A stretch of 64,000 nucleotides of DNA from Vulcanimicrobiota bacterium (GTDB lineage: Bacteria > Vulcanimicrobiota > Vulcanimicrobiia > Vulcanimicrobiales > Vulcanimicrobiaceae): contig CAVZQC010000005.1 of NCBI GenBank assembly GCA_963777315.1, forward strand, positions 64,001 to 128,000, written 5' to 3'. This document shows positions 17,481-28,157 of the stretch, one piece after another. The notes beneath the pieces are model-generated. The model was not told where the DNA came from. It did not search any database and saw only the letters and a program-made list of their open reading frames with translations. The position numbers were made by a program, and so were the translations under genes. The number at the start of each line of letters is the position of its first letter. Within the stretch, counting starts at the first letter, position 1.

Positions 17481-17948
17481 GTGCCGAAACCCTCACATAT
17501 CGCCGACGACGGCAGCATTTTTATGGTCGACGTCTCGCAAAAAACGCCGACGCCGCGAACCGCTCGGGCGCAGGCCCGCGTCCATTTAGGCGCGGCAGCT
17601 GCGGCCGCGCTGCGGAGCGCGACGCTGGTCAAGGGCGATGCATTCGCGGCCGCTCAGCTGGCCGGCATCATGGCGGCGAAGCACACCTCTACGCTCATTC
17701 CACTCACGCACGTCATCCCGCTTTCCGCCGTCGACGTGGCGCTGCGTTGGAAGGACGACGTGCTCGTTATCGAGGCTGAGGCGAAAACCGTTGCAGTGAC
17801 CGGCGTCGAAATGGAAGCGATGGTCGCTGCGGCGGTGAGCGCGCTCACGATTTACGACATGGCAAAAGCCGTTTCGAAAGACATCACGATTGAATCGGTG
17901 CGCTTGCTGCGCAAGACCGGCGGCAAGAGCGGTACGTATGAACGCTAA
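17481..17948 (+). CDS. moaC: Cyclic pyranopterin monophosphate synthase
   Basis: MVDVSQK, AGIMAAKHTSTLIPLTH, TGVEMEA, KTGGKSG. Confidence 0.93.
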   Translation: MPKPSHIADDGSIFMVDVSQKTPTPRTARAQARVHLGAAAAAALRSATLVKGDAFAAAQLAGIMAAKHTSTLIPLTHVIPLSAVDVALRWKDDVLVIEAEAKTVAVTGVEMEAMVAAAVSALTIYDMAKAVSKDITIESVRLLRKTGGKSGTYER

Positions 17949-18420
17949 GGCTGCGCTCGTCGTGCTTTCGGACCGGGCGGCTTCGGGCTCGCGTGCGGAT
18001 CTCTGCTTGCCGGTGATGCGCGAACGTTTGGGACCGGCGTACGAAATCGTGCGCGAAACGGTGCTTCCCGACGACGCATCGGCGCTGCAGGCCGAACTGA
18101 TCGATCTCTGCGACCGCGGCGCCGCATCGCTGATACTCACCAGCGGAGGCACCGGCCTTGGACCGCGCGACCGCACGCCGCAGGCCACGGCGGCAATTCT
18201 GGACTACGAAGTTCCCGGCATCGCCGAAGCGATTCGGGCCGCCTCGATGAAGATCGTCAAAAGCGCCATGCTTTCGCGCGCGCTTGCCGGCGTGCGCCAT
18301 CGTACGCTGATCGTCAATCTTCCCGGCAGCCCCAAAGCGGTGGGCGAATCGCTCGACGTCATTTTGCCGGTTTTGCCGCACGCCGTCGAACTGCTTGCCG
18401 GAGACGTCGTCGACGGCTGA
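17938..18420 (+). CDS. mog: Molybdopterin adenylyltransferase MogA/MoaB
   Basis: VLSDRA, TSGGTGLGPRDRTP, NLPGSPKAV. Confidence 0.88.
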   Translation: MNAKAALVVLSDRAASGSRADLCLPVMRERLGPAYEIVRETVLPDDASALQAELIDLCDRGAASLILTSGGTGLGPRDRTPQATAAILDYEVPGIAEAIRAASMKIVKSAMLSRALAGVRHRTLIVNLPGSPKAVGESLDVILPVLPHAVELLAGDVVDG

Positions 18421-18423
18421 TCC

Positions 18424-19749
18424 ATGGATTTCTCACAAGCGCAAACCTATTTGCTGGGAACGGTCAACGAAACGGCGTCTCGCCGCGAGCCGTATCGGCT
18501 GGATCGCATGCGTGCGTTCATGCACGAATTGGGCGATCCGCAGGACCGCTACCCGACGGTGCACGTCGGAGGAACCAGCGGAAAAGGCTCGACCTCGACG
18601 ATGATCGGGGCTGCGCTGAGCGCTTCGGGCAAGCGGACCGGCCTGCACACCAAGCCGCATCTGCGTTCGATGACCGAACGTGCCCGGATCGACGGCGCGG
18701 ACGTGCCCGAAGAACGGTTTGCCGAGCTGCTTGAGCAGATGATGCCCGCGATTCGACGCATTACCGACGAATACTCGCGTCCCTCGTACTATGAAACGCT
18801 GCTCGCGCTGGCGTTTTTGTATTTTGCGCAGGAACGGGTCGATGCCGCGGTCATTGAAGTGGGCATCGGCGGCAAACTCGACGGGACGAACATTTTGCTC
18901 CCGCGCGTGTGCGTCATTACGAACATCGGCTTGGACCACACCGAAATTCTGGGCGATTCGCTCGAAGAGATCGCTCTGGACAAAGCCGGTATCGCCAAGC
19001 CCGGCGTGCCGCTGGTCACCGCAGTCGATCGCCCCGGCCCGCGCGCCGTGATTGAAGCGCGCTGCCGCGAAGCCGGCGCACCGCTGGTCGCGGTCTTGGA
19101 CGTAACGGCCGTCAGCAAGCTCGAACTGGCGCAACGGGGACAGCGCTTTGCTTTGCGTACGCCGCAGCAAACCTACGACGTGACGTTGCCGCTGCTCGGG
19201 GAGTTTCAGCAGCGTAATGCGGCCACCGCTATCGTCGCGCTCGAACAGCTCGACGCGAAGCTGCGTCCCGGCAAGGACGCCATCGAACGCGGCCTTGCGA
19301 ATATGACTTTGGCGGGACGAATGGAATATTTCCCTTCACATCCCGGCATAGTGTTCGACGTGGCGCACAATCCCGACAAAGCCGCGCATTTGGCGCAATC
19401 CCTCATGATAACGTTTCCGGGCAGACGCTTTGCCTTCGTGATCGCCGTCGGCGCCGGCAAAGATGCGCCCGAAATCCTGCGCGCCTTCGCCGATTTGCCG
19501 GCTTCGTACGTCTTTACGTCGTTCGAAGCGCAGGGACGGACGGCATCCAAACCGCAGCGCCTGGCGGCGATCGCCGAAACGCTCGGAATATGGGGGCGTT
19601 CCATTGCGGATCCGATTGAAGCGCTGGCCATCGCCAGACGCAACGCTTCGAGCGAAGAAGTGATCGTGGTCACGGGTTCGACGTTCGTGGTTGCGGAGCT
19701 GCGCGAATGGTGGATCGAGAACGTCCTTGCCGGTCAGTTTGCGCGATAA
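18424..19749 (+). CDS. folC: Folylpolyglutamate synthase/dihydrofolate synthase
   Basis: HVGGTSGKGS, EVGIGGKLDGTN, DVAHNP. Confidence 0.93.
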   Translation: MDFSQAQTYLLGTVNETASRREPYRLDRMRAFMHELGDPQDRYPTVHVGGTSGKGSTSTMIGAALSASGKRTGLHTKPHLRSMTERARIDGADVPEERFAELLEQMMPAIRRITDEYSRPSYYETLLALAFLYFAQERVDAAVIEVGIGGKLDGTNILLPRVCVITNIGLDHTEILGDSLEEIALDKAGIAKPGVPLVTAVDRPGPRAVIEARCREAGAPLVAVLDVTAVSKLELAQRGQRFALRTPQQTYDVTLPLLGEFQQRNAATAIVALEQLDAKLRPGKDAIERGLANMTLAGRMEYFPSHPGIVFDVAHNPDKAAHLAQSLMITFPGRRFAFVIAVGAGKDAPEILRAFADLPASYVFTSFEAQGRTASKPQRLAAIAETLGIWGRSIADPIEALAIARRNASSEEVIVVTGSTFVVAELREWWIENVLAGQFAR

Positions 19750-20587
19750 CGCGCGCGGCGCGTTACGAGCGCGCGGTCGCGTGTTGCCATGGGGCGAGCG
19801 AACGTACGTAATGGGCGTAGTAAACGTCACCCCGGATTCGTTTTCGGGCGACGGCATGCCCAATGCGCCCGAAGCGATCGCACACGCGATCGAGCAATCG
19901 TGTCTGGGCGCGGACATCGTCGACATAGGCGCCGAATCCACGCGGCCCGGATACGTACCCGTCGACGAGCAAACCGAGCTGCAGCGGCTCCTGCCGGTCT
20001 TGCACGCGGTGCGCCAACGTCTGCCCGGCGCCATCGTTTCCGTCGACACCCACAAGCCGGCGGTTTTTCTTGCCGCGCGCGCCGCAGGCGCCGACATGCT
20101 CAACTCGGTGTGGGGTCTGCCCGAAGAGCTGCTTGCGGTGGCAGCGCAAGCCCGCGTGCCGGTCGTGATCATGCACAACCAGGCGCGCGCGCATTACGCG
20201 GGCGGCGTGATGAACGAGGTGCTGGCGTTTTTGCAGGAAGCGGCCGCGCGCGCGCTGAGCGCGGGACTCGAGCGCGACGGCATCATCGTGGATCCCGGGA
20301 TTGGATTCGGCAAAACCGCCGATCACAACATTGCGGTCTTGCGCGAGTTGCCGCGGTTGACGGCGCTGGGATTCCCCACGCTGATCGGTACGTCGAGAAA
20401 ATCGACGATCGGGAAATTGACCGGCAAAGCGCCGCTGCGGCGCGTTGCGGGCACGACGGCGACGACTGCCCTTGCGGCCGCTGCCGGCATCGATATCGTC
20501 CGCGTTCACGACGTGGACGAAGCGATCGACGCGGTTCGCGTCAGCGACGCTATCGTTCGCGGTTGGCGCCCTGCGCAATGGACGTGA
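19739..20587 (+). CDS. folP: Dihydropteroate synthase (start approximate)
   Basis: MGVVNVTPDSFSGDG, GAESTRPG, DPGIGFGK, SRKS, IVRVHDV. Confidence 0.95.
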   Translation: MRDNARGALRARGRVLPWGERTYVMGVVNVTPDSFSGDGMPNAPEAIAHAIEQSCLGADIVDIGAESTRPGYVPVDEQTELQRLLPVLHAVRQRLPGAIVSVDTHKPAVFLAARAAGADMLNSVWGLPEELLAVAAQARVPVVIMHNQARAHYAGGVMNEVLAFLQEAAARALSAGLERDGIIVDPGIGFGKTADHNIAVLRELPRLTALGFPTLIGTSRKSTIGKLTGKAPLRRVAGTTATTALAAAAGIDIVRVHDVDEAIDAVRVSDAIVRGWRPAQWT

Positions 20588-20940
20588 TCGCACTTGCCCG
20601 AATGCGCGTTGCGGGCCGTCACGGCGCCTTTGCCGCCGAGCGCGCTTGCGCGCAGCCGTTCGATCTGGACGTCGTCGTCGAACTCGATCTGCGGCGCGCT
20701 GCAGCCAGCGACGATCTTGCCGATACGCTCGATTACGCGCAGCTGCACCGGCGCATAACGCAGGTCGTTGGGTCGACCTCCTTCGCGCTGCTCGAGCGGC
20801 TCGCCGGCGAAATTCTGGACGTCATCTTTTCGGATCCTCGCGTAGCGCGCGCCGAAGTGGCAATCGCCAAACCCGCGCTATTGGAAGGCGCCACGCCGAG
20901 CGTGCGTTTGCGGCGGGACAATCCCGGCTATCGCGACTAG
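20578..20940 (+). CDS. folB: Dihydroneopterin aldolase
   Basis: MDVIAL...GRHGAFAAER...SDDLADTLDY...LLERLA. Confidence 0.92.
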   Translation: MDVIALARMRVAGRHGAFAAERACAQPFDLDVVVELDLRRAAASDDLADTLDYAQLHRRITQVVGSTSFALLERLAGEILDVIFSDPRVARAEVAIAKPALLEGATPSVRLRRDNPGYRD

Positions 20941-20947
20941 CAGTCCG

Positions 20948-21811
20948 ATGGCGCGCGCTGCGATCGGCATCGGTTCGAACCTGTGCGATCCGGTTGCAAA
21001 AGTGCGGCGAGCATTTCGCGAGCTCGCGATCGTCGGCACGATCGTCGCGCGCTCGCCGCTCTACCGCACCCGAGCGTGGGGCCGAACCGATCAGCCGGAT
21101 TTTTGCAATGCCGTCGCTCTGTTGGAAACCACGCTCTCGCCGCGCGAACTTCTTTCGGCGCTTCAGATGCTGGAAGTGCGGCTCGGCCGCGAGCCGGGCG
21201 AACGTTGGGGGCCCAGGGCGATCGACTTAGACATCCTGCTGTATGGCGAGCAGCGTCTCGACGAACCCGGATTGACCGTTCCGCACGCGCGCCTGTTCGA
21301 GCGCGCATTCGCTCTCGTTCCGCTGGCCGACGTAGACGAGCGGTACCGGGAGGCGGTCGCGGGGCTTCCCGGCGCCGAGCGCGAATCGGTATCGCTCATG
21401 TCGGAGCAGCAGCTGGTCGGCCGCGTGCGCATGCTTGCGCGGGCTTTCTTAGAAACGGACCTGATGCGGCTGCGCATCCAAGATGAAAACGACGATGCGG
21501 TCGAGTTCCGCCGCAAGGCGGTGCCGGCGGCGCGCAGTTCGACGCAGGCTTCCCAGGCGTGGGACGCCCCCGCGCCGGTCGCCCACATCGAGCCGATAAA
21601 GGCCGACTTAGTCGGCATCTTCCATTTGAGCCGGCGTCCGGTCACCGAGGGCGAACGCTTGGACGACGATCGGGAGCTGGCATACGTCGAAGCGCTGGGA
21701 ATCCGCAATCCGGTACGCTCTCGGGGCTCGGGGCGAATCGTCAGCGTGCTGTGCAAGGACGGCCAGCCCGTCGAGTACGGCCAGGTTCTTTTCGAGATCG
21801 ATCGCGGCTAA
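20948..21811 (+). CDS. folK: FolK (HPPK) fused to an AccB/BCCP-like protein lacking the biotinyl lysine
   Basis: N-terminal IGIGSN, QPDFCNAV, RWGPRAIDLDIL, ERAFALVPL; C-terminal IKADLVGIFH...YVEALGIRN...DGQPVEYGQVLFEI. Confidence 0.88.
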   Translation: MARAAIGIGSNLCDPVAKVRRAFRELAIVGTIVARSPLYRTRAWGRTDQPDFCNAVALLETTLSPRELLSALQMLEVRLGREPGERWGPRAIDLDILLYGEQRLDEPGLTVPHARLFERAFALVPLADVDERYREAVAGLPGAERESVSLMSEQQLVGRVRMLARAFLETDLMRLRIQDENDDAVEFRRKAVPAARSSTQASQAWDAPAPVAHIEPIKADLVGIFHLSRRPVTEGERLDDDRELAYVEALGIRNPVRSRGSGRIVSVLCKDGQPVEYGQVLFEIDRG

Positions 21812-21832
21812 CGTGCCCGACGATGCCGCTGC

Positions 21833-23191
21833 GTGATGCTTAAAAAAGTTCTCATCGCCAACCGCGGAGAGATCGCGTTGCGCATCAATCGCGCATGCCG
21901 CGAGCTCGGCGTGCAGACCGTGGCGATATTTTCCGAAGCGGATCGCAACTCGCTTCACGTGCGTCATGCCGACGAAGCGTTTTGCGTGGGTCCAGGGCCG
22001 GCCGGCCTTTCGTATTTGAGCATCCCGAACATCATCTCGACCGCGCTCATCACGGGCTGCGACTCCGTGCATCCGGGTTACGGTTTCTTGGCGGAAAACG
22101 CGCGTTTTGCGGAAATCTGCGCGGACCACGGGCTCACGTTCATCGGTCCGCGCCCGGAAGTGATCGCGGCAATGGGGGACAAGGCGACCGCCAAGCGCGT
22201 GATGCAGCAGGCCGGCATTGCGACGACTCCGGGAACCGATATTTTGCCCTCGTTCGAGCAGGCCCGCGCTGCGGCCGACCGGATCGGCTATCCGGTGCTG
22301 CTCAAAGCCACGGCGGGCGGAGGCGGCAAAGGGATGCGCTCGGTGCATGCGCCCGACGAACTCGAACGCGCGTATGCGTCCGCGACGGCCGAAGCCGAGG
22401 CGAGTTTCAAAGACGGCCGCGTCTACATGGAGAAGCTGATCGTCAAACCGCGGCACATCGAAGTGCAGATCATGGCGGACGACTTCGGCAACGTCGTGCA
22501 TTTGGGCGAACGCGACTGCTCGGTGCAAAAGCCGTCGCATCAAAAGCTCATCGAAGAGGCGCCCGCGCCCAATTTGTCCGAGGCGGTTCGCAACGAGCTG
22601 CACGCGATGGCGGTGACGGCAGCGAAAGCCGTCGGCTACAGCAACGCGGGAACGCTCGAGTTTCTCGTCAACGGCGATCGGGTGTACTTCATGGAGATGA
22701 ACACGCGCATTCAAGTCGAGCATCCGGCCACGGAGATGGTCTACAGCATCGATTTGGTCAAAGAGCAGATTCTCGTGGCGGGCGGCGAACAATTGGGATA
22801 CACGCAAAGCGACCTCAAGCCGGTGGGACACGCCATCGAGTGCCGCATCAACGCGGAGGATCCGCGCAGCAATTTCGCCCCGGCGGCCGGCACGCTCACG
22901 AACGTCGTGTTTCCGGGCGGCCCGGGGATCCGCGTCGACACCCACGTGTATTCAGGCTCGGTCGTGCCGCCGTTCTACGATTCGATGATCGCCAAGATCA
23001 TCGCGCTGGGCAGCAGCCGCGAAGCGGCGATCGTGCGCATGGAGCGCGCTCTTGCAGAAACCGCGATCGAGGGCGTCAAGACCACGATCGACCAGTGCCT
23101 GGAGATTCTTGCCAGCCCGCCGTTTCGCAGCGGGCATTATGCCGTCGACTTTTTGCCGAACCTGCTGGCTTCGGCCGCATCGGTTGCATAG
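21833..23191 (+). CDS. accC: Biotin carboxylase
   Basis: KKVLIANRGEIA, HPGYGFLAEN, GGGGKGM, EMNTRIQVEH, YDSMIAK. Confidence 0.95.
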   Translation: MMLKKVLIANRGEIALRINRACRELGVQTVAIFSEADRNSLHVRHADEAFCVGPGPAGLSYLSIPNIISTALITGCDSVHPGYGFLAENARFAEICADHGLTFIGPRPEVIAAMGDKATAKRVMQQAGIATTPGTDILPSFEQARAAADRIGYPVLLKATAGGGGKGMRSVHAPDELERAYASATAEAEASFKDGRVYMEKLIVKPRHIEVQIMADDFGNVVHLGERDCSVQKPSHQKLIEEAPAPNLSEAVRNELHAMAVTAAKAVGYSNAGTLEFLVNGDRVYFMEMNTRIQVEHPATEMVYSIDLVKEQILVAGGEQLGYTQSDLKPVGHAIECRINAEDPRSNFAPAAGTLTNVVFPGGPGIRVDTHVYSGSVVPPFYDSMIAKIIALGSSREAAIVRMERALAETAIEGVKTTIDQCLEILASPPFRSGHYAVDFLPNLLASAASVA

Positions 23192-23193
23192 CC

Positions 23194-23601
23194 GTGCCCA
23201 CCCGCCGCATGAGCCGCGAGCTCGCATTGCAAGCCCTGTTTTCCGTTGAAATCGGCCACCGCGATCCGGGCGAAGTACTCGAAGAATACCTGGCGACGTT
23301 CGGTGACGGCTCGCACCGGCTGTTCGTCAAGGATCTCGTGCTCGGAACGATCGAAAACGCGAGCGAAAGCGACGATGCGATCGGGCCGCTGCTGCAGGGC
23401 TGGACGATCGAACGTCTGCCGACGATCGACCGGCTGCTGTTGCGCATGGGGACGTTCGAACTGCGTCATCGGCCGCAGACGCCGCGGCCCGTCATCATCA
23501 ATGAAGCGGTCGAACTGGCCAAGCGGTTCTCCACCGAGGATTCCGGCCGTTTCGTAAACGGCGTCCTTTCCACGCTCAGCAAGGCCAACGGACATGCGTA
23601 G
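23194..23601 (+). CDS. nusB: Transcription antitermination factor NusB
   Basis: RRMSRELALQALF, GWTIERL, INEAVELAKRF, FVNGVL; GTG start at 23194. Confidence 0.93.
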   Translation: MPTRRMSRELALQALFSVEIGHRDPGEVLEEYLATFGDGSHRLFVKDLVLGTIENASESDDAIGPLLQGWTIERLPTIDRLLLRMGTFELRHRPQTPRPVIINEAVELAKRFSTEDSGRFVNGVLSTLSKANGHA

Positions 23602-25732
23602 AGCACTGCGGGTGCTGCTGGTACTGCTGCTGCTGGTCGTGCTGTTCGTCGCCGGTTCCGTCGCCGGCATCGTGGCGGCATACTCGCGAAACTTGCCCGA
23701 CATCTCGCGCATGGCGGATTATCAGCCGGCGCGTTCGACGCGCATCTATGCGCGCGACGGCTCGCTGCTGGCCTCGCTGTACAAAGAGAATCGCATTTGG
23801 GTGCCGATCGGCAAGATTCCCCAGCCGGTTCGCGAGGCGTTCATCGCCAATGAAGATCACAATTTCTACCATCATCACGGCGTGGATTTCGGGGGTATCG
23901 TTCGCGCGTCGTTCGCAGACCTCACGCATCACCATATCGAGCAGGGCGCCTCCACGATTACCCAGCAGCTCGCCCGCGGGCTCTTTCTCACCGACAAACA
24001 GTCGATCTCGCGCAAGATCCAAGAAGCGCTGCTCGCGATGGAGATCGAGCGCTACTACACCAAAGACGAGATCCTCGAACGGTATTTGAATCTGATCTAT
24101 TTGGGCTCGGGCGCGTACGGCGTCGACGCGGCCGCTCACACGTACTTCGGACGCAGCGTGGGCAGCCTGACCTTGGGCCAAGCGGCAATGCTCGCGGGCC
24201 TGGTGGCGGCACCCTCCGATTATTCGCCGTACGTCAACCGGCCGCTGGCGCGCGAGCGCCAGCTCCACGTGCTCCAACGCATGGCCGACAGCGGATACAT
24301 TACCGGCGATCAGGTGGCCGAAGCGTACGACGCGCCGCTGCAGCTGGCCGGACAGCGACCCGCAGGACTCCAGGGCTTCAGCGCGCCGTGGTTCACCACA
24401 TATACGGTCGCGCAGCTCGAGCGCGCGTTCGGCAAACAGGCCGCGTACGAAGGCGGTCTGCAAGTGTACACCACGGTCGATCCGCGCATGGAAAAAATCG
24501 GGCAAGAAGCCGTCGATTGGGGCATGAACGAGGCCAAACTCGAAGGCATCGGCGCCGACCAAGCCGCGCTGGTTGCGATTCGTCCGTCGACGGGCGAGAT
24601 CATGGCGATGATCGGCGGCACGCATTTTTCTTTGACCAATCAATTCAACCGCGCGTGGCAAGCGCATCGCCAGCCGGGCTCTTCCTTCAAAGTTTACGTG
24701 TACACCGCCGCCATCGATAGCGGAATGCCGGCGTCGACCATCATCGACGATTCCCCGGTCAGCTATCCCGACGGCACGGGCGGGACGTGGTCCCCGCAAG
24801 ACGACGACCACAGTTATATGGGGCCGGTCACCCTGCGCGTAGGGCTTGCGCAAAGCCGAAACATCGTCGCGGTCAAACTGCTCGAGCAAGTGGGCGTGGA
24901 TCGGGTTATCCAGTATGCGCACCGCATGGGCGTCAGCTCGAATCTGGAAGCGAACCTTTCGCTCGCGCTGGGAACGTCGGTGATCACGCCGCTCGATCAA
25001 GCCACCGGTTACGCCACGCTGGCAAATCAAGGCGTGCACATCCCGGCCTCGCCGTTCCGATTGGTCAAGGACTCGCTGGGAAACCCGGTGCTGGACAATC
25101 AGTACCCCGAACAAACCGAAGTGGTCAGCGCAGGCACCGCATACATCATGACCACGATGATGGAAGACGTGGTCAACCACGGCACCGGGTATCCCAATGC
25201 CGTAATCGGGCGCCCCGCCGCTGGAAAAACCGGTACGACGTCGGACTTTCGCGATGCCTGGTTCGTCGGTTTCACCCCGGATTTGGTCACCGCGGTATGG
25301 ATCGGCAACGACAACTATCATCCGATGAACGAGTCGTACGGAGGCAACATCCCCGCGCGCATCTGGGCACGTTTTATGAAAAGTGCGCTGGAAAACGTGG
25401 CAAAGCACGACTTTGTTTTTCCCGGTGACGAGGTCAAGAAAGTTGCCGCGTGCGGCGGCGGCTACGGGCCGTACGAATACTATTTAACCGGAACCGAACC
25501 GCTCACTCCGTGCGGCTCCCCGCAATTACCGCAAGCTGCTGCGTTCGGCGGTCCGCTTCACGCGTCCAACGGTTCGAGCGACATGCCGCCCGCGCCCACG
25601 TTTTCGCCGCCGCCGACCGCGCCGCCGCCGCGTGAGGCAGCGCAGCCCCCCGACAGCGTCGGCGATGGTACGAATTACGTTCCGTTGGACTCTCCGGCGC
25701 CGGTGGTCAGCACGCAGCCCCGGAATAGGTAG
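23594..25732 (+). CDS. Class A penicillin-binding protein (PBP1A family)
   Basis: TG motifs EDHNFYHHHG, GASTITQQL, RKIQE; TP motifs SSFK, SRN, KTGT. Confidence 0.93.
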   Translation: MRRALRVLLVLLLLVVLFVAGSVAGIVAAYSRNLPDISRMADYQPARSTRIYARDGSLLASLYKENRIWVPIGKIPQPVREAFIANEDHNFYHHHGVDFGGIVRASFADLTHHHIEQGASTITQQLARGLFLTDKQSISRKIQEALLAMEIERYYTKDEILERYLNLIYLGSGAYGVDAAAHTYFGRSVGSLTLGQAAMLAGLVAAPSDYSPYVNRPLARERQLHVLQRMADSGYITGDQVAEAYDAPLQLAGQRPAGLQGFSAPWFTTYTVAQLERAFGKQAAYEGGLQVYTTVDPRMEKIGQEAVDWGMNEAKLEGIGADQAALVAIRPSTGEIMAMIGGTHFSLTNQFNRAWQAHRQPGSSFKVYVYTAAIDSGMPASTIIDDSPVSYPDGTGGTWSPQDDDHSYMGPVTLRVGLAQSRNIVAVKLLEQVGVDRVIQYAHRMGVSSNLEANLSLALGTSVITPLDQATGYATLANQGVHIPASPFRLVKDSLGNPVLDNQYPEQTEVVSAGTAYIMTTMMEDVVNHGTGYPNAVIGRPAAGKTGTTSDFRDAWFVGFTPDLVTAVWIGNDNYHPMNESYGGNIPARIWARFMKSALENVAKHDFVFPGDEVKKVAACGGGYGPYEYYLTGTEPLTPCGSPQLPQAAAFGGPLHASNGSSDMPPAPTFSPPPTAPPPREAAQPPDSVGDGTNYVPLDSPAPVVSTQPRNR

Positions 25733-27373: not shown

Positions 27374-28157
27374 GTGACCGAGCGCCTCGACACGCTGGTT
27401 GCGCAGCGTGAAGGCATCACGCGCTCGCAGGCGCGCAGCCTGATTATGGAGGGCCGGGTGACCGTCGACGGGACGCCGGCGAGGAAGGCGGGCGCGAACG
27501 TGCAAGCCGATTCGCGGGTCGAGATCGAACGGCCGCGCCGTTTCGTCAGCCGAGGCGGGGAAAAGCTCGAGCACGCGCTGGCCGTCTTCCAGATAGACAC
27601 CGAGGGCAAATCGAGCTCTGGACGTGGGAGCGTCGACGGGCGGTTTCACCGATTGCCTGCTGCAGCGCGGCGCGGCGCGCGTCGTGGCCGTCGACGTGGG
27701 CTACGGGCAATTGGACTGGCGTCTTCGCAACGATTCCCGCGTGACGGTAATGGAACGCACCAATTTCCGGCACTTGCGCGATGATGCGTTCGCCGACCCG
27801 TTCGATCTCATCGTCGTCGATGCGTCGTTCATTTCTCTGCAAACGATCGTTGCGCGCGCGTCGGCATATCTAGCGGACGATGGCGATATCGTCGCACTGG
27901 TCAAACCGCAATTCGAAGCGGGACGCGAACGGGTCGGGCGCGGCGGGGTGGTGCGCGATCCGGACGTGCATCGCGCGGTGCTGCGGGAAGTTCGCTTCGC
28001 TGCAGCGCAGCTGAGTTTGAGCGCGGTAGGGTTGACGCCTTCGCCGCTGCTGGGCCCCGCGGGAAACCGCGAATTCCTCATGCACCTGCGGCGCGGCGGG
28101 TCTGCCCTTGCCGATGAAGTGATCGACGCGGTGGTAGCGAAGCGCCATTCAGCATGA
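27374..28157 (+). CDS. tlyA: TlyA family rRNA 2'-O-methyltransferase; +1 frameshift near 27611 (likely sequencing error)
   Basis: S4 domain and FVSRGGEKL in one frame, [11 protein letters not shown]...VKPQFE...GNREF in the next; removing one base restores [10 protein letters not shown]. Confidence 0.88.

Follow-up and report, generated by a model that had tools for sequence, protein, structure and literature searches.

The gene just upstream of accC in this genome encodes a paralogue of the biotin carrier BCCP (AccB) that has no biotinyl-lysine. We propose that this protein, which we call AccB*, is probably a non-biotinylated and non-catalytic anchor subunit of acetyl-CoA carboxylase (ACC), similar to the BADC proteins of plants. 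The proposal draws on sequence comparisons and structural models: AccB* keeps the predicted docking surface of BCCP without the lysine, and the canonical AccB of the same genome shows the converse, which makes a plant-style anchor subunit the likely role. In the window (the whole 64,000-nucleotide stretch of DNA that we analysed), AccB* is the C-terminal part of a fusion with the folate enzyme FolK, and the fusion is likely to be incidental.

The FolK fusion and its lysine-less module

A single stop-free frame on the forward strand (20948-21811) encodes a protein of 287 amino acids, with an intact HPPK (FolK) at its N-terminus and an AccB-like module at its C-terminus (Table 1). The earlier note had described one open reading frame in which HPPK continues into an AccB-like protein, and both the profile matches and the uninterrupted frame uphold this: the HPPK profile and the biotinyl-domain profile (PF00364) each score above their cut-offs. 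The internal ATG at 21398, the EALGI motif with its GGA codon, and the sequence DGQPVEYGQVLFEI are also as the note had them. In the AlphaFold2 model of the fusion, HPPK (residues 1-145) is followed by a helix-strand-strand element (154-188), a disordered stretch (190-208), and a biotinyl barrel (214-285). The pTM of this model is 0.53, which suggests that there is no fixed packing between the HPPK and AccB-like domains.

Table 1. Features of the fusion locus, in positions of the window
Feature	Positions	Strand	Basis or remark
folC-folP-folB, upstream	18424..20940	+	folC has Mur-ligase domains and is named from its context
folK part, HPPK domain, no stop codon	20948..21397	+	profile matches, AlphaFold2 model, homologue alignment
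Bipartite promoter-like element, within the end of folK	21359..21386	+	conserved motif; putative function
GCGGGG box	21359-21364	+	first box of the promoter-like element
GCGAAT box	21381-21386	+	second box, after the spacer
accB* module, 137 aa, lysine-less BCCP paralogue	21398..21811	+	from the internal ATG; profile, alignment, and structure matches
N-terminal helix-strand-strand, module residues 3-38	21404..21511	+	model; resembles the N-terminus described for E. coli BCCP (PMC11160672)
Biotinyl-domain barrel, module residues 64-135, thumb ~5 residues short	21587..21802	+	match to 1BDO
GGA (Gly) at the biotinyl-lysine position	21698..21700	+	HMM alignment to E. coli BCCP
P-V-E-Y docking patch (E. 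coli P145-V146-E147-F148)	21767..21778	+	predicted AccC interface, with V72 and L100
accC, predicted partner of AccB*	21836..23191	+	no other stand-alone biotin carboxylase was found in the genome
nusB	23209..23601	+	next come a gene for a penicillin-binding protein and xseA

Its family score, its fold, and the conservation of its active-site residues identify the N-terminal part as a FolK. It scores 128.7 bits against TIGR01498 (cut-off 54.1; residues 5-130) and has E = 2.8e-36 against PF01288; its fold and motifs are complete, and its model matches solved HPPK structures. Across 62 fused homologues, N11, Q49, F52, N54, E76, R81, R90, D93, D95, H113, R119, and F121 are invariant; these correspond to active-site residues of E. 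coli HPPK. HPPK-DHPS and DHNA-HPPK are known fusions of FolK. In contrast to those, the fused partner here lies outside the folate pathway and retains its own start.

The AccB-like part has the biotinyl/lipoyl barrel fold: it scores 28.8 bits against PF00364 (cut-off 22.1), and its barrel model matches 1BDO (E = 9e-6, rmsd 2.1 Å). It resembles E. coli AccB in its helix-strand-strand N-terminus, its Ala/Pro linker, its barrel, its place before accC, and a docking face of the V88/E147/F148 type. Unlike E. coli AccB, it has glycine in place of Lys122 (on which the Gly of EALGI falls in an HMM alignment), Leu/Ile in place of the flanking methionines, and a thumb that is shortened by a deletion of about 5 residues (a feature that is less clear in other classes); the lysine comes from a second gene. 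Its match to TIGR00531 (E = 2.4e-10, 41.1 bits) is far under the cut-off of 115.2. AccB* thus lacks the marks of a carrier, which are the A-M-K-M hairpin with the biotinyl-lysine, the full thumb of ACC carriers, and a TIGR00531 score above the cut-off. We also considered K218 as an alternative acceptor and rejected it, as this lysine lies off the hairpin and is conserved in the close fusions but not family-wide.

The coding frame of the fusion ends 24 nt before the start of accC, and nusB is next. The relatives are Vulcanimicrobiota (Eremiobacterota), and within the class the module is present in all 94 genomes (E ≤ 2.2e-33; unpublished G036 is counted). Glycine occupies the lysine site in 79 of 80 species loci (the remaining locus is frameshifted and unreadable), accC lies immediately 3' of AccB* in 79 of 80, and the lysine is missing from 73 of 80 aligned AccB* copies. 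These counts support the idea that a conserved BCCP paralogue that cannot be biotinylated sits in the accB slot. The slot copies of family f3 have Lys (7/10) or Arg (3/10) at the site, so biotinylation may persist there. The f3 copies (L125-L134) also have a C-terminal extension with a conserved terminal EPPR[LIM] motif; 8 of these 10 loci have no folK between folB and accB*.

In other classes, 37 genomes have a match to AccB*. We inspected 18 of these loci: all 18 precede accC and all 18 lack the lysine, with Asn, Ser, Arg, or Gly at the site. Another 20 genomes have no match to the AccB* profile, and 19 of them also have no AccA over the cut-off and no strong AccB; these assemblies are incomplete, so absence here means "not found." The 19 other-class genomes in which AccA over the cut-off, canonical AccB, and AccB* were all not found are mostly over 90% complete (they are G042, G050, G055, and G060 with ten further f5 genomes, G041, and four f12 genomes), and their lineage may be without the heteromeric carboxylase.

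Beyond the phylum, lysine-less carriers occur in sources from Armatimonadota, Capsulimonadales, Armatimonas, Ktedonobacteraceae, or Chloroflexota, where they lie after efp and before xseA or, beyond a pilin-like gene, accC. Some similar copies outside the phylum retain the lysine. (The ancestral order in Bacillota is efp-accB-accC-nusB-xseA.) In Ktedonobacteria/Chloroflexota (L200:3941-4486, L214:3917-4468, L236:3926-4435, and L255:3941-4468), the order is efp, a lysine-less accB with Asn at the site, and xseA, and accC does not adjoin. In Armatimonadota-like loci, a small prepilin-like ORF (L207:3597-3965, L210:448-816, L243:3134-3523, and L249:4368-4811) separates the accB-slot gene from accC. 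In a tree of 72 carrier proteins (141 columns), slot copies from three groups cluster away from ordinary AccBs; the grouping is weak (SH-aLRT 70-81), one slot copy strays, and the tree is no proof of a single origin, with outside rows chosen by likeness and several taxon labels inferred. P0172, P0182, P0189, and P0262 have what by eye is a TIR-like N-terminus, with two to four biotinyl domains after it in which the lysine is variably present.

Docking residues and the proposed anchor subunit

The earlier note had suggested a search of the genome for a canonical accB, and we found one elsewhere, beside hisS. A six-frame search of the source genome identified nine biotinyl/lipoyl domains at E < 1e-6, and one of these is a stand-alone AccB with the motif EAMKL (G000:C2:553345-553563, behind hisS). 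The genome assembly, which is 89.9% complete, also contains accA, accD, and birA, so AccB* occurs in a genome that has a catalytic BCCP and the full gene set for heteromeric ACC as well. A canonical, lysine-bearing AccB is present in 40 of 41 genomes (counting unpublished G019, G021, and G036), and its locus includes hisS in 27 of 30 cases by one count and in 20 of 30 by another.

In E. coli BCCP, V88, M121, M123, P145, E147, and F148 are described as the contact residues of the non-catalytic site at which it docks on BC and AccD, with P145 and E147 nearly fully conserved (PMC11160672). We found that 80 of 80 AccB* rows have an aromatic residue (Tyr/Phe) at position 148; position 147 is acidic in 79/80, V88 is present in 77/80, and P145 is present in 45/80. 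In contrast, none of the 56 canonical copies (26 from the class and 30 from other classes) has an aromatic residue at 148 or P145, while Glu147 is found in 0/26 within the class and in 21/30 from other classes. The canonical copies do keep the biotinyl-lysine (56/56) and, within the class, the full thumb (27/27). The two carrier paralogues look complementary: AccB* keeps the docking face, and the canonical copy keeps the lysine and the thumb. The 80 AccB* rows include 41 from a scan with the C-terminal peptide among its six patterns, which biases those rows toward the docking motif; the other 38 rows and the window, which were chosen without the C-terminal peptide, have the same docking residues. 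Metagenome loci were kept outside these counts because they were selected on the PVEYG pattern. Furthermore, the best-conserved columns of AccB* (V72, G73, V125, G128, and L131) lie on the docking face of the barrel and not in the N-terminus.

Arabidopsis BCCP1 is reported not to bind BC without BADC (PMC11926652). By our own mapping of the residue numbers in that paper (an offset of 43 from Lys165, and the numbering of G186-V189 and S190), Ser190 of BCCP1 lies at the E147 position, and 15 of 26 canonical copies from the class likewise have Ser at this position.

We also modelled a complex of AccC with residues 60-137 of AccB*. The ipSAE was 0.83, as compared to 0.00 for the best of 3 controls; the runs shared 100% of contacts; and the pLDDT of the partner was at least 90. 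(Of solved pairs, 116 of 157 reach the ipSAE mark, as do 2 of 215 mismatched pairs; close relatives of a true partner pass it too.) The predicted interface joins AccC residues 34, 49-53, 59, and 64-73 to AccB* residues 71-74, 99-100, 124, and 126-129, and it coincides with the docking site in E. coli. Because similar complexes have been solved (4HR7 and 8UXZ), the score may be a memory of them, and it shows likeness and not binding. The value of the model is that the predicted contact residues are those that AccB* kept and that the canonical AccB lost. An AccB* that could tether HPPK to the adjacent biotin carboxylase, or regulate that enzyme, had been envisaged in the earlier note, with a complex model as a check. 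The contact with AccC is indeed predicted; a regulatory role is possible, but the loss of docking residues from the catalytic copy is a better fit to a constitutive anchor.

As an anchor, AccB* would stay on the docking site of AccC. The canonical AccB, without a docking face, would be held in the complex via the N-terminal helix-strand-strand that it shares with AccB*, in a putative co-assembly, and would swing its biotin between the active sites. In the E. coli tube, ten copies of the N-terminal motif of BCCP have been modelled as forming a barrel (PMC11160672), and for Chloroflexus BC1, the BCCP hairpin is reported to form an eight-stranded barrel (PMC11077971).

Alternatively, AccB* might be an inhibitor or tunable regulator: in line with the competition model for plant BADC, it would vie with the biotinylated carrier for the same BC site and reduce flux. 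We consider this unlikely because the catalytic copy is without the docking residues, which would leave little competition at that site, and because accB* nearly abuts accC in most loci and is missing together with the enzyme, as would be expected for a stoichiometric subunit. Nevertheless, the sequence and model support for binding AccC applies equally to an inhibitor, separate control could come from its own promoter-like element, which is of a minor class, and negative regulation by plant BADCs has been reported (PMC12706156, PMC13585458).

The fusion to FolK and the internal start

The two other families of the class, like the other classes that we examined, encode AccB* as a gene of its own. 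We saw the fusion in 0/5 genomes of family f2 and 0/11 genomes of family f3, and it is missing from 13 of 24 relatives in family f1; the identical in-frame junction is present in 11 of these 24 (counting unpublished G019, and with 2 frameshifted elsewhere). Overall, 57 of the 77 species loci that hold folK have an in-frame junction, in a sample dominated by one clade. Thus, where conservation of both the fusion and the lysine-to-glycine change had been in question, the glycine is nearly universal (79/80 loci) and the fusion is common (57/77) but absent from f2 and f3.

On a tree of AccC (91 rows, excluding three further fused genera), the fusion label needs at least 4 changes and the outgroups are unfused, which implies a repeated origin; on this evidence, the fusion is a derived state that has arisen several times. 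One clade of 43 rows is fused throughout, and the fused loci have 14 junction lengths, each in frame. This implies that neutrality is not a full explanation. We found no case in which a plain folK runs through out of frame, although the tails to be expected in such cases are short (medians of 23 and 42.5 codons).

The FolK of family f2 instead has a methyltransferase-like extension (as seen from sequence only). FolK with a domain that by eye resembles a class I SAM-dependent methyltransferase, with a DVGCGTGR-type motif, is encoded at L039:727-2556, L040:748-2442, and L042-L044 (family f2) and at L041:607-2004 (G040). The f2 frame stops 11-17 nt beyond the start of accB*. To judge from these extensions, the FolK of this lineage is one that readily acquires C-terminal partners.

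At the internal start, 12 nt separate CGAA from the ATG (21398), with no Shine-Dalgarno sequence between them. Ahead of the start, 52 of 62 fused loci and 41 of 49 unfused loci have [C/G]GAA at 10-14 nt, with a GG-rich box at about 35 nt. The DNA that encodes the ESVSL-M "linker" (GCGAATCGGTAGCGCTC-ATG here) is nearly the same before the starts of copies whose folK is 1-5 kb away, so it seems to be conserved as DNA. Among fused homologues, 53 of 55 retain the internal Met; in 4 of 67 fused loci we found no start with the motif. Within the source genome, the two-box pattern precedes 16 of 1555 called starts, versus 19 of 12101 internal ATGs (p = 3.6e-7, or about 6.6-fold enrichment, with gene starts that are crude calls); an earlier genome-wide motif test gave a weak rise at 8-12 nt only. 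The 16 starts that follow the element (GG-rich, 15-17 nt, [C/G]GAA, 11-13 nt, ATG) include those of alaS-, proS-, and rpsC-like genes.

A scan for sigma-70 sites across 17900-24000 gave 0 sites, with 1.0 expected, so the element is not of the sigma-70 type. We take it to resemble sigma-H promoters, and it may represent a class of promoters for an alternative sigma factor whose transcripts are nearly leaderless. With the internal Met kept in fused homologues and the element kept in fused and unfused loci alike, separate production of AccB* is probable in the fused genomes too. In the window, AccB* would be made from its own start at 21398, from a nearly leaderless transcript together with accC, and a FolK-AccB* read-through product would also be made from the folate operon.

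Could the fusion have been selected, so that HPPK is tethered to the carboxylase and folate and fatty-acid synthesis are coupled? This would be compatible with an anchor role for AccB*. The 57 fused loci out of 77, the repeated origin, the in-frame junctions, the missing out-of-frame run-through (for which tails would be short), and the invariant HPPK residues all favour selection. We doubt it because those 57 loci are mostly of one clade, the fusion is dispensable in f2, f3, and over half of the f1 relatives, folK does not adjoin AccB* in several f3 loci and in other classes, the internal start and the promoter-like element are kept, and the low pTM suggests no fixed packing of the domains. 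Also, HPPK and ACC are not known to have an intermediate in common. The link between folate and fatty-acid synthesis that the earlier note had drawn is thus doubtful, as AccB* is often unfused and has its own start element, with folK 1-5 kb off in places.

Other readings and known systems

We think it quite unlikely that AccB* works away from acetyl-CoA carboxylase, as a leftover paralogue with another job such as transcriptional control of accBC by its N-terminus or PII binding. The N-terminus of E. coli AccB is reported to repress accBC (PMC11160672), plant BADC and BCCP are reported to interact with PII (PMC12706156), and the lysine-less copy in Ktedonobacteria-like loci lies between efp and xseA without an adjoining accC. 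However, conservation peaks at the docking face of the barrel rather than at the N-terminus, and AccB* and AccA are absent together. Finally, the ORF is almost certainly not a sequencing error or a decaying pseudogene: although the source assembly is incomplete and the locus is frameshifted in 2 relatives, the EALG motif and the junction recur in dozens of independent genomes, E/D-A-L-G is found in 120 of 120 best protein matches, and the module homologues, whose decay would have spoken for this reading, have open, stop-free frames in 94 class genomes, so conservation refutes it.

The preferred reading of AccB* as an anchor has parallels in known systems. BADC1-3 of the Arabidopsis plastid heteromeric ACCase are described as BCCP homologues without the biotinylation motif, which bind BC and the N-terminal region of BCCP and act as glue or as inhibitors (PMC11926652, PMC12706156). 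Which of these roles the non-biotinylated plant subunits have is disputed, according to PMC11926652, and BADC is termed there unique to the plant enzyme. Like plant and algal BADC, AccB* has no biotinylation motif and exists beside a catalytic BCCP; unlike BADC, it is bacterial, has 137 amino acids, sits in the accB-accC-nusB slot, and is often in frame with FolK. On testable features, AccB* is like plant BADC by analogy, which is a functional likeness and not membership by descent. No BADC was seen among the PDB matches listed for the AccB* module. AccE and PccE are not known to be homologues of BCCP, and they bind the carboxyltransferase side. These actinobacterial epsilon subunits are reported as non-catalytic glue in acyl-CoA carboxylases (PMC11926652), and AccB* is likewise a candidate for a non-catalytic glue subunit in bacteria.

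Our literature searches, which took in a minority of subscription journals, listed no bacterial lysine-less accB. The new findings are a carrier gene linked to hisS, a loss of docking residues that makes the two paralogues look complementary, an element at the internal start, and a fusion that arose more than once. A wider picture, which we offer as a tentative possibility, is that of an ancient family of biotin-free carriers in Vulcanimicrobiota, Armatimonadota, and part of Chloroflexota, with a five-subunit ACC, the same division in plant BCCP/BADC, and HPPK on the carboxylase in the fused lineages. If this is true, docking and biotin carriage are split over two genes, and the BADC principle is an old bacterial design. 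A single-copy bacterial counterpart of BADC would provide a simple five-protein system for the glue/inhibitor question, and the residue-level prediction (the F148/E147/P145 face) would be transferable to plant BCCP/BADC, which is a target for oilseed engineering. Annotations would also change: in these phyla, BCCP or folK is the usual label for the gene that precedes accC, and the real carrier adjoins hisS.

Elsewhere in the window, a TlyA-like gene (by eye, an S4 domain and then a methyltransferase) is split over the overlapping frames 27374-27784 and 27624-28157, which is a probable frameshift or assembly error.
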